DNA of 24,008 bases from a virus. Lineage: Duplodnaviria > Heunggongvirae > Uroviricota > Caudoviricetes. Location of the stretch: the IMG/VR virus record IMGVR_UViG_2671180360_000013, positions 1 to 24,008 of that record, one strand, 5' to 3'. Position 1 is the first letter of the stretch. Each line of letters opens with the position of its first letter. The notes under the pieces were generated by a model, which saw only the letters and a program-made list of their open reading frames with translations, did not search any database and had not been told where the DNA came from. Positions 21,637 to 22,632 of the stretch are shown piece by piece. Made by a program: the position numbers and the translations under genes.

Positions 21637-21678
21637 CGCCATGATTGCCACGGATGGCAACATATTAACGGCATAATA

Positions 21679-21715
21679 TTGACTTTTTGAATAACTTTGG
21701 GGAAACTTGACACCA
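21679..21715 (+). promoter_or_regulatory. pR' late promoter region with Q-utilisation site (diverged downstream)
   Basis: Sequence after the Q stop resembles recalled lambda pR' (TAACGGCATAATATTGACTTTTTGAATAA...), -35 TTGACT at about 21679-21684, weaker -10; similarity to lambda is lost after about 21700. Confidence 0.5.
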
Positions 21716-21915
21716 ATAATGGGCGTTTTTTACATGTCATTGATGAGTCTCAATAACCTGCCGCCGAGTAGTTTTTATGCTCTGAATTGTATTTGTGTAG
21801 TAAACATGCTGACTGCAATGTAATAGAGTTTTTTTAGCCTGTAACCTCTTGACGGCATTGAATTGCTTTTGTTATGAGTTGTAAGCCAATGTTATCATCT
21901 TGTATTGGGGTGGTT

Positions 21916-22632
21916 ATGAAGGATGGTGCGCTGCTCAGGAGTTCTTCACTTTTTATTGCCTACATGGGATGCCTTGGATGGGGGAGTGCTTATTTCTATG
22001 GATGGGGTACTTCTTTTTACTACGGCTTCCCATGGTGGATTGTAGGTGCAGGTGTTGATGATGTTGCCAGAAGTTTATTTTTTGCAGTTATCGTCATTGC
22101 TATATTTCTTATCGGTTGGGGTATTGGTGTTGTATTCTTTTTCGCAGTGAAAAGAAAACATTCTATGCAAGAGCTAAATGTATTTCGCCTTTATTTTGCT
22201 GTGGAATTATTGTTTGTGCCGGCAATTATTGAGTTTTCTATATTGAGACAGAAGATTCAGGTACCTCTTTTGCTACTGTCAGCAGCGATTGTGCTGGCGG
22301 TTACAATTTCGATAAGATCTTATGGGCGATTTTTATCGGTATCATGCTTCTATGATAAGCCATTTATAAAAAAACATTTTTTTGAGATTGTGATGATTGC
22401 TTTTGTGGCATATTTTTGGCTTTTTTCATTTCTGACAGGATATTACAAACCACAGTTTAAGAAAGAATATGAAATGATTAATTATAATGATGGTTGGTAT
22501 TATGTTCTTGCTCGTTATGATAATTGTCTGGTTTTGTCTACTTCTTTCAATGCAGGTAGTAAAAGGTTTGTCATTTATCAATCAGCACAAGATAAGAATC
22601 TTCAGGTTGATATTGTAAGGACCAGAATTTAA
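21916..22632 (+). CDS. Hypothetical multi-pass membrane protein (moron downstream of pR')
   Basis: AT-rich ORF (track 21874..22632) with about five hydrophobic helices and Trp/Gly-rich N-terminal segment; start taken at MKDGALL (GGGGTGG upstream) but ATG 21874 is also possible. Confidence 0.55.
   Translation: MKDGALLRSSSLFIAYMGCLGWGSAYFYGWGTSFYYGFPWWIVGAGVDDVARSLFFAVIVIAIFLIGWGIGVVFFFAVKRKHSMQELNVFRLYFAVELLFVPAIIEFSILRQKIQVPLLLLSAAIVLAVTISIRSYGRFLSVSCFYDKPFIKKHFFEIVMIAFVAYFWLFSFLTGYYKPQFKKEYEMINYNDGWYYVLARYDNCLVLSTSFNAGSKRFVIYQSAQDKNLQVDIVRTRI

Follow-up and report, generated by a model that had tools for sequence, protein, structure and literature searches.

Introduction

In phage lambda, the late promoter pR' and its terminator tR' are separated by an interval of 194 nucleotides (nt) that is non-coding. 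The promoter is constitutive in lambda and in Shiga toxin (Stx) phages, in which the pR'-tR' interval is also non-coding (258 nt), and its short terminated product, namely 6S RNA or StxS, can be processed to a trans-acting small RNA (sRNA) (PMC7547250). Here, we describe a gene cassette that stands behind a promoter of this kind in a window of 24,008 nt, i.e. the whole stretch of DNA that was analysed, which corresponds to positions 1 to 24,008 of the IMG/VR virus record IMGVR_UViG_2671180360_000013. The window represents the half of a lambdoid Escherichia coli prophage that holds the early and regulatory genes, and the cassette occupies part of its last 2.4 kb. As in the 6S and StxS transcription units, transcription would begin at a late promoter that is constitutive, regulated by Q and equipped with a Q-binding element and a pause box, and would end at the first intrinsic terminator with an sRNA at the 3' end. 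Unlike in those units, the first predicted terminator lies about 1.37 kb from pR', and two membrane-protein genes stand in between.

The classical lambdoid morons, such as lambda bor and lom as well as stx, provide a second point of comparison. The cassette shares with them a foreign base composition, insertion between conserved late-region neighbours, a 3' terminator, dispensability in lytic growth and, as a candidate, an own promoter. It differs from them in that it is without a demonstrated phenotype, holds an sRNA gene and, in the lineage with a lambda-type Q, has lost its insulation from pR'.

By its sequence, the cassette is an accessory element of three parts: a gene of the tfpB family, a DUF3927 gene and a PasD/STnc100-like sRNA gene that owns the strong terminator. 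We regard it as a real, ordinary and horizontally mobile moron. The best explanation of its role, in which we have moderate confidence, is that this mobile cassette is expressed from an own promoter, by read-through from pR' and by Q-driven transcription, and that it supplies a lysogenic-conversion factor of the cell envelope and does not act in lysis.

Results

The cassette occupies the stx slot behind a lambda-type late promoter

The late-gene antiterminator gene Q (21,013-21,636, plus strand; PF03589 at 1e-57) is of the lambda type and encodes a protein 98% identical to lambda Q (203 of 207 residues). Similarity to the lambda pR'/qut region continues for about 87 bp after Q, up to ~21,723, as do the matches to the promoter/qut annotations of HK97, HK022, HK446 and mEp phages. 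The pR'/qut-like late promoter (21,679-21,720, plus strand) has a -35 element TTGACT (21,679-84), a 17-nt spacer containing the Q-binding element and a -10 element GAAACT (21,702-07); its start site is probably at ~21,714/15, and a sigma70 -10-like pause box, AATAAT, is found at 21,715-20. Thus, the promoter, the Q-binding element and the pause box of a 6S/StxS-type leader are all found right after Q. GAAACT matches the -10 consensus at three of six positions, as compared to four of six for TAAATT of lambda. It is the pR' -10 element in most of the lambda-Q-type copies of the cassette, while two IMG/VR loci, L052 and L063, keep TAAATT. Compared to lambda, about 4 of the 21 positions of the Q-binding element are changed, despite the 98% identity of the Q proteins.

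Homology to lambda-type phages stops at ~21,723 and homology to Stx-type phages restarts at 23,058, with the cassette itself extending over ~21,772-23,058. The ~1.3 kb that follow pR' have a GC content of 37.5%, as compared to 51% for Q and 57% for the gene downstream, which encodes a sialate esterase of the nanS-p/SASA type (5' part at 23,175-24,008, plus strand, running off the window) and was assigned by tblastn and from the PGAP and phage annotations of near-identical loci. In related phages, the holin and endolysin genes lie 3' of the esterase gene. Since Stx-type homology restarts at 23,058, the cassette is placed by homology in the slot held by stx in Stx phages, between the late promoter and the esterase/lysis genes. 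No tRNA genes, such as those of phage 933W, were found. Insertion between genes that lie next to each other in related phages and an atypical base composition are both features of a moron; as for expression signals of its own, the downstream terminator is clear, and the promoter is a conserved consensus-like box only.

An earlier note on this DNA, made from the sequence alone, had also placed the gene of interest at the stx-equivalent locus, and both the esterase gene at 23,175 and the homology from 23,058 bear this out. The divergence from lambda that it described is real, but it set in at about 60 bp past Q in that account instead of 87 bp. Likewise, its AT-rich gene for a multi-pass membrane protein of about 240 residues holds up as an open reading frame (ORF), in its base composition and in its transmembrane (TM) helices, while its start at 21,874 does not (see below). 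It overlooked the second gene of the cassette, as well as the fact that the strong terminator belongs to an sRNA.

Two phages carry the cassette in near-identical form, with the same gene order and the esterase gene next. Phage 2B8 (NC_049952; gp58 and gp59) is 98.4% identical to the window over 21,600-23,200 and, like the window, combines the lambda-type Q and pR' with only a crippled copy of a terminator. Phage 434 (OL657226; CPT_434_68, CPT_434_69 and CPT_434_70) is 99.3% identical from 21,772 on; unlike the window, it has a Q82-type Q and late promoter, and an intact terminator right 5' of the cassette. Its annotation describes the cassette as two 'putative membrane proteins' and TciB.

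The first gene encodes a predicted inner-membrane protein of the tfpB/STM1630 family

The first gene of the cassette (21,916-22,632, plus strand) encodes a predicted inner-membrane protein of 238 residues that belongs to the tfpB/STM1630 family, as indicated by PF27470, phrog_1521 (function unknown in phrog), the PGAP name 'STM1630 family protein' and the alignment of its start. All homologues of 237-238 residues begin at the position corresponding to 21,916, which is preceded by the Shine-Dalgarno sequence GGGGTGG; on these grounds, we rejected both the start at 21,874 (252 residues) and the start annotated in phage 434 at 21,889 (27 nt upstream). PGAP itself uses 21,916 in some genomes and a 247-residue form in others. 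The gene is under purifying selection, with a dN/dS of 0.07-0.2 against homologues that are 45-94% identical. Membership in PF27470 is precomputed on every homologue found, including proteins that are 94-100% identical to that of the window, and is matched by a full-length STM1630-type alignment; our Pfam and NCBIfam scans of the protein gave nothing useful, the model sets scanned being without PF27470.

Family members, including the window protein, share an N-terminal AY..YGWG..YYGFPWW motif, several TM helices and a C-terminal beta domain. For the window protein, hydropathy and AlphaFold2 predict five TM helices followed by a small C-terminal beta domain of ~55 residues. With 21 close homologues only, the AlphaFold2 model was unusable (pLDDT 57), which was remedied by adding distant family members to the alignment (pLDDT 80, pTM 0.74). 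The resulting model has helices at residues 10-36, 47-78, 89-111, 116-139 and 155-181, and a five-strand domain at 184-235. Because positive charges are concentrated at the N-terminus and in loops 2-3 and 4-5, the protein is predicted to adopt an N-in, C-out topology with a periplasmic beta domain.

A profile search of 1.84 billion representative proteins yielded 74 clusters at 50% identity. The named members are from Enterobacteriaceae, Neisseria, Actinobacillus, Gallibacterium, Avibacterium, Pasteurella and Haemophilus ducreyi, all of which are animal-associated. A literature search for 'TfpB' found no paper about the family; the name presumably goes back to the ORF tfpB of the Moraxella bovis pilin-inversion region. 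One member is STM1630 of Salmonella Typhimurium, a protein of 238 residues that aligns collinearly over its full length (45% identity, E 4e-70) and has the same predicted architecture. Unlike the window gene, STM1630 lies on a chromosomal island beside sseJ, has its own mapped promoter, and is without a phage context or a DUF3927 or PasD partner.

A DUF3927 gene and a PasD-like sRNA complete the cassette

The second gene (22,718-22,876, plus strand) has a TTG start and encodes a small 'TciB-like' membrane protein of 52 residues, assigned to DUF3927 from PF13064 (53 bits, cut-off 25), phrog_1470, PGAP and the phage 434 annotation. TciB of phage P1 is likewise a DUF3927 protein, but the P1 gene has the TerB-like tciA and tciC as neighbours, both of which are missing from the window. 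The 'tellurite/colicin/cell division' label of the P1 Tci proteins is an annotation guess. DUF3927 is missing beside most of the diverged tfpB homologues, which rules out an obligate pairing of the two genes.

The third part is a PasD/STnc100-like sRNA gene (22,887-23,091, plus strand) that matches the whole of the STnc100 model (RF02076; 1-206 of 206, E 4e-7), although its 38.9 bits fall short of the gathering score, which is 47. It ends in a strong intrinsic terminator. The terminator has its stem at 23,062-23,080, followed by a T8 run that extends the U-run of the transcript to 23,088 (-17.7 kcal/mol, z -4.3). PasD sRNAs are structurally related to STnc100, and pasD lies directly 5' of the esterase gene in NC_049952, i.e. 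phage 2B8 (Zhu, Shabalina & Storz 2026, bioRxiv 10.64898/2026.05.13.724894). In the window, the sRNA gene is likewise directly upstream of the esterase gene and has its own intrinsic terminator, and the synteny with NC_049952 suggests that 22,887-23,091 corresponds to PasD. In view of the full-length STnc100 match and the placement of pasD in the near-identical 2B8, the first strong terminator behind pR' is most likely the terminator of a PasD-type sRNA.

Two further ORFs in this region were considered and set aside. A 62-codon ORF at 22,933-23,121, which the phage 434 annotation lists as a 'putative membrane protein', is probably spurious: it starts with TTG, crosses the terminator, has no family match and overlaps the STnc100-like element. 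A 14-codon ORF at 23,012-23,056 (MRTSLVLFLLSFSL) is preceded by GGGAGG, which falls on a hairpin that is conserved in the RNA model.

The leader retains only the remnant of a tR'-type terminator

According to the earlier note, there is no convincing terminator between pR' and the membrane-protein gene, and the first strong one is found at about 23,062-23,088. A consensus scan of the region calls none before 23,062-23,080 with its T8 run. In addition, all hairpin and T-run candidates in 21,700-21,920 were evaluated using a d'Aubenton-Carafa-type score (d) with ViennaRNA energies. All of them score negative, the two best having d values of -15.7 and -30.5, whereas the positive controls score +15.3 (tR' of lambda), +32.2 (tR' of phage 434) and +55.7 (23,062-23,080 in the window). 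The fold of the whole leader is no better than that of shuffled sequence (z -0.07). No 78-nt stretch of the leader has more C than G and a canonical Rho-loading site is not evident; with G in excess of C throughout, the leader is expected to be a poor site for Rho loading. Since the leader candidates score negative, the controls score positive and no Rho-loading site is evident, the observation stands. Thus, an intrinsic terminator within a few hundred nt of pR', as found in 6S/StxS-type leaders, is missing here, the first one being at 23,062-23,088.

Alignment with the intact copies of the phage 434/Q82 type identifies a decayed tR'-type terminator at 21,755-21,777 (plus strand). The window reads AACCTGCCGCCGAGTAG and, after a gap of 3 nt, TTTTTATG, where phage 434 reads AACCCGCTGCCGAGTGGGTTTTTTTTATG. 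The remnant, AACCTGCCGCCGAGTAG-TTTTT, thus differs from the 434 copy by three substitutions, the 3-nt deletion and a shorter T-run. Only a 4-bp stem (CUGC/GUAG) with U5 remains (d -30.5), and the minimum free energy fold has no hairpin beside the U-run. The phage 434 terminator, in contrast, consists of AAACCCGCUGCCGAGUGGGU followed by U8 (-13.3 kcal/mol, z -3.5), and is located ~35-60 nt past the Q82-type late promoter, directly 5' of the cassette. The decayed form is found in all of the ~40 lambda-Q-type loci examined.

Two of the IMG/VR loci (L011 and L046) are natural recombinants, in which a lambda-Q-type leader with the decayed hairpin is joined to the 434-type pattern of single-nucleotide polymorphisms (SNPs) right after the T-run. 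In these loci, the terminator remnant marks the recombination junction.

As the window keeps only a crippled terminator copy, Q-independent read-through from pR' into the cassette is plausible in the lambda-Q lineage. To this extent, we agree with the proposal of the earlier note that the gene lies inside a constitutive pR' transcript and could be expressed without Q, given that no terminator is predicted before 23,062. The dependence on pR' is not needed, as set out in the following section.

Conserved promoter-like boxes and the distribution of the cassette argue for a route of expression independent of pR'

Two overlapping candidate promoters precede the tfpB-like gene. P1 (21,849-21,878, plus strand) consists of TTGACG (21,849-54), an 18-nt spacer and TGtTATGAG (21,870-78), whereas P2 (21,869-21,898, plus strand), which was called by the consensus scan, consists of TTGTTA (21,869-74), an 18-nt spacer and TGtTATCAT (21,890-98). 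The arrangement TTGACG-N17/18-TAT is kept 5' of homologues that are 59-68% identical in protein, in flanking DNA that has otherwise diverged; the box is carried both by a plasmid of enterotoxigenic E. coli (ETEC; L091) and by another type of prophage (L095). Because the promoter-like boxes are conserved in plasmid-borne homologues, the cassette is probably not dependent on pR'. A CII-binding site, TTGT-N6-TTGT, is annotated in phage 434 at the position of 21,869-82; the plasmid homologue lacks the second half-site, and we treat the site as a sequence pattern only.

Some match to the region is present in 1,300 of 5,426 complete E. coli genomes, and in 682 genomes the match covers at least 80% of 21,600-23,200. 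Roughly one-fifth of the complete genomes, including O157:H7, have the cassette. The junction of the lambda-Q type occurs in 570 complete genomes and that of the 434/Q82 type in 620. Of 80 IMG/VR loci, ~40 have the lambda-Q/pR' upstream region and 33 have that of the 434/Q82 type.

These data bear on the strict version of the proposal made in the earlier note, in which the gene lacks an own promoter and owes its expression in lysogens solely to the constitutive pR' transcript. In its favour are the lack of a predicted terminator between pR' and the gene, the fixation of the decayed terminator in all the lambda-Q-type copies examined, and the constitutive activity of pR' in lambda and Stx phages (PMC7547250). 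However, an intact terminator precedes the cassette in 33 of the ~80 loci and in 620 complete genomes, homologues on plasmids and in chromosomal islands have no pR' at all, and the TTGACG promoter-like box is kept where the surrounding DNA has diverged. We therefore regard strict dependence on pR' as unlikely. Since about half of the copies lie behind an intact terminator, the box is kept in diverged plasmid and prophage homologues, and some copies are not in phages, we favour expression from an own promoter as the more general route, to which read-through from pR' would be an extra, lineage-specific input.

The tfpB-like protein is not a holin and probably has no role in lysis

The position of the cassette in the late operon, just 5' of the lysis genes, raises the possibility that the tfpB-like gene is a late-only gene, which would be silent in lysogens due to H-NS, a weak pR' or residual termination, and which would have a lytic role, e.g. 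in lysis timing or membrane conditioning. AT-rich DNA is a typical target of H-NS, and, given the intact terminator of the 434 type, Q-dependent expression is certain in that type. Moreover, E. coli O157:H7 strain PV15-279 carries both lineages of the cassette (L099, 3,410-4,151, and L100, 3,409-4,152), and its Q82-type copy is followed directly by a holin gene, with no esterase gene. Against such a role, phage 434B is viable with its whole Q-to-lysis segment replaced by DLP12 DNA (PMC9119081), from which it follows that the cassette is dispensable in lytic growth. The relatives have separate lysis genes beyond the esterase gene (class II holin, endolysin and lysis protein), and the tfpB family also occurs on plasmids and chromosomes without lysis genes. 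The protein itself, with 238 residues, five TM helices and a periplasmic domain, is unlike holins and antiholins, for which 60-150 residues, 1-4 TM helices and a position beside the endolysin gene would be expected. The earlier note had named a holin-like lysis gene as an outcome at odds with its proposal; the size and the five TM helices plus beta domain show that the ORF is not one. Given the wrong size and architecture, the separate lysis genes and the occurrence of the family without lysis genes, we conclude that the tfpB-like protein is neither a holin nor, in all likelihood, a partner in lysis, and consider a gene confined to the lytic phase to be improbable.

Homologues of the tfpB-like gene recur beside virulence and envelope genes

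The homologues are found in several independent contexts. On ETEC plasmid DNA flanked by insertion sequences (IS), a homologue lies beside eltAB, which encodes the heat-labile enterotoxin (LT), together with STb, and another is on an STb/TPS/AraC virulence plasmid. Within a prophage, a homologue is located between Q/methylase and lpxR-pmrD-esterase. In Citrobacter rodentium, a homologue adjoins lpxR at an equivalent chromosomal locus, in Salmonella one adjoins sseJ, and a further one is next to iroBC-like genes and bor. Among the loci collected, TfpB-family genes are within a few kb of eltAB and STb on IS-rich plasmid DNA in L091-L094 and L105-L106, and next to lpxR in L095-L097 and L101; pmrD is also near in L096.

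STM1630 is expressed in macrophages (10.1101/689075, 10.1101/450098). Its own promoter has been mapped, and two SNPs in the -10 box silence STM1630 in ST313 (10.1101/689075); during macrophage infection, STM1630 is among the genes with lower expression in D23580 than in 4/74 (10.1101/450098). It has also been listed among genes that are co-regulated with Salmonella pathogenicity island 2 (SPI-2) and virulence regulators (PMC2639726). Based on the neighbours lpxR, pmrD, sseJ, LT, STb and iro, and on the joint regulation of STM1630 with virulence genes, the family may serve in adapting the envelope to the animal host, which we put forward as a weak inference.

Prophage inner-membrane proteins often exclude other phages, as do SieA of P22 and gp15 of HK97. 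A third possibility is that the tfpB-like protein acts in superinfection exclusion or toxin tolerance, in the manner of Sie, Imm or colicin-immunity proteins, and shields the lysogen from phages or bacteriocins. Consistent with this, the neighbouring gene is labelled 'TciB-like', and the same prophage has an Stk-type kinase with PADLOC matches (see below), which indicates that it collects defence cargo. However, PADLOC gives no match at E <= 1 for any of the three ORFs, and thus for neither the tfpB-like nor the DUF3927 protein; the Tci designation in P1 is a guess, with tciA-C non-essential and uncharacterised; DUF3927 is missing beside most tfpB homologues; and the recurrent neighbours are virulence and envelope genes and not defence islands. 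Exclusion or toxin tolerance is thus an alternative to which we assign a low probability, and a lysogenic-conversion factor of the envelope is the most economical reading.

Other genes in the window

The window begins in the chromosomal flank of the prophage with a gene for a LacY-family oligosaccharide/H+ symporter (1-1,248, plus strand; PF01306, 1e-193), and continues with exo/bet/gam/kil/cIII, N, the immunity region, O/P and the nin genes up to Q. A eukaryote-like Ser/Thr kinase of 348 residues (8,967-10,013, minus strand; PF00069, 2e-46; PADLOC mad6 and PD-T4-6 matches) and an adjoining ORF of 153 residues (10,007-10,468, minus strand; no family match) lie between N and the repressor gene, at the spot equivalent to that of rexAB. 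We take the kinase to resemble the Stk exclusion kinase of 933W. An ORF of 617 residues (16,846-18,699, minus strand) is found on the opposite strand inside the nin region. It has no Pfam or PADLOC match, its homologue in strain F8704-2 is a 'hypothetical protein' (WP_000612805), and it is likely a cargo gene.

Discussion

The tfpB-like gene and its family, the DUF3927 partner and the sRNA have all been catalogued before, and a classical phage already has the cassette in its annotation. We found no earlier description of the pair of intact and decayed terminators, of its consequence for Q-independent expression, or of a possible link between pR' and PasD.

On the explanation that we favour, the cassette would be expressed by three routes. 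First, it would be transcribed from one or more sigma70-type promoters of its own, as its plasmid and chromosomal relatives must be. Second, in the lambda-Q lineage only, Q-independent read-through from pR' would produce ~1.37 kb of RNA up to the PasD-like terminator, and this terminator would then be the functional tR'. Third, Q-modified polymerase would transcribe the cassette during lytic growth. The product would be an N-in inner-membrane protein, whose five TM helices are followed by a small beta domain in the periplasm, and would act in the envelope of the lysogen as a host-niche factor. A further possibility, which we consider tentative and on balance doubtful, is that the loss of tR' has turned a by-product of the 6S/StxS type into a lysogen mRNA of ~1.4 kb that encodes two membrane proteins and carries a processable PasD at its 3' end, with the PasD terminator as the target of Q.

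Several points weigh against the explanation that we favour. With regard to expression, the promoter and terminator calls are predictions from sequence. P1 does not have the consensus T at -7, and since the pR' -10 element GAAACT is weaker than that of lambda, the constitutive output of pR' may be low. Read-through could be stopped or silenced by the 4-bp/U5 remnant, by the T7 run at 21,829-35, by H-NS on AT-rich DNA or by non-canonical Rho activity. In PV15-279, the tfpB-like gene has a frameshift where it follows the decayed terminator, but is undamaged where it follows the intact one; hence, the gene is not always maintained in the lambda-Q arrangement. With regard to function, the searches run found no structural or sequence relative of known function for the tfpB-like protein, and its functional reading is thus one of guilt by association. 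Deletion of STM1630 does not lower intramacrophage replication (10.1101/689075), and the only phenotype reported for STM1630 is hypermotility in one screen (PMC4219756).

The tfpB family travels repeatedly beside virulence cargo, namely LT, STb, sseJ, lpxR, an iroBC-like locus and the stx slot. With its strong purifying selection, small family size and recurrent virulence neighbours, the tfpB-like gene is a reasonable target for functional work. The presence of intact and decayed terminators behind different Q types constitutes a natural experiment on the co-option of a late promoter, and these natural variants could show whether that promoter can drive prophage cargo and the PasD sRNA without Q. 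If loss of tR' has indeed had the effect outlined above, a late promoter controlled by antitermination would, in the absence of Q, drive lysogenic-conversion genes together with a trans-acting sRNA.

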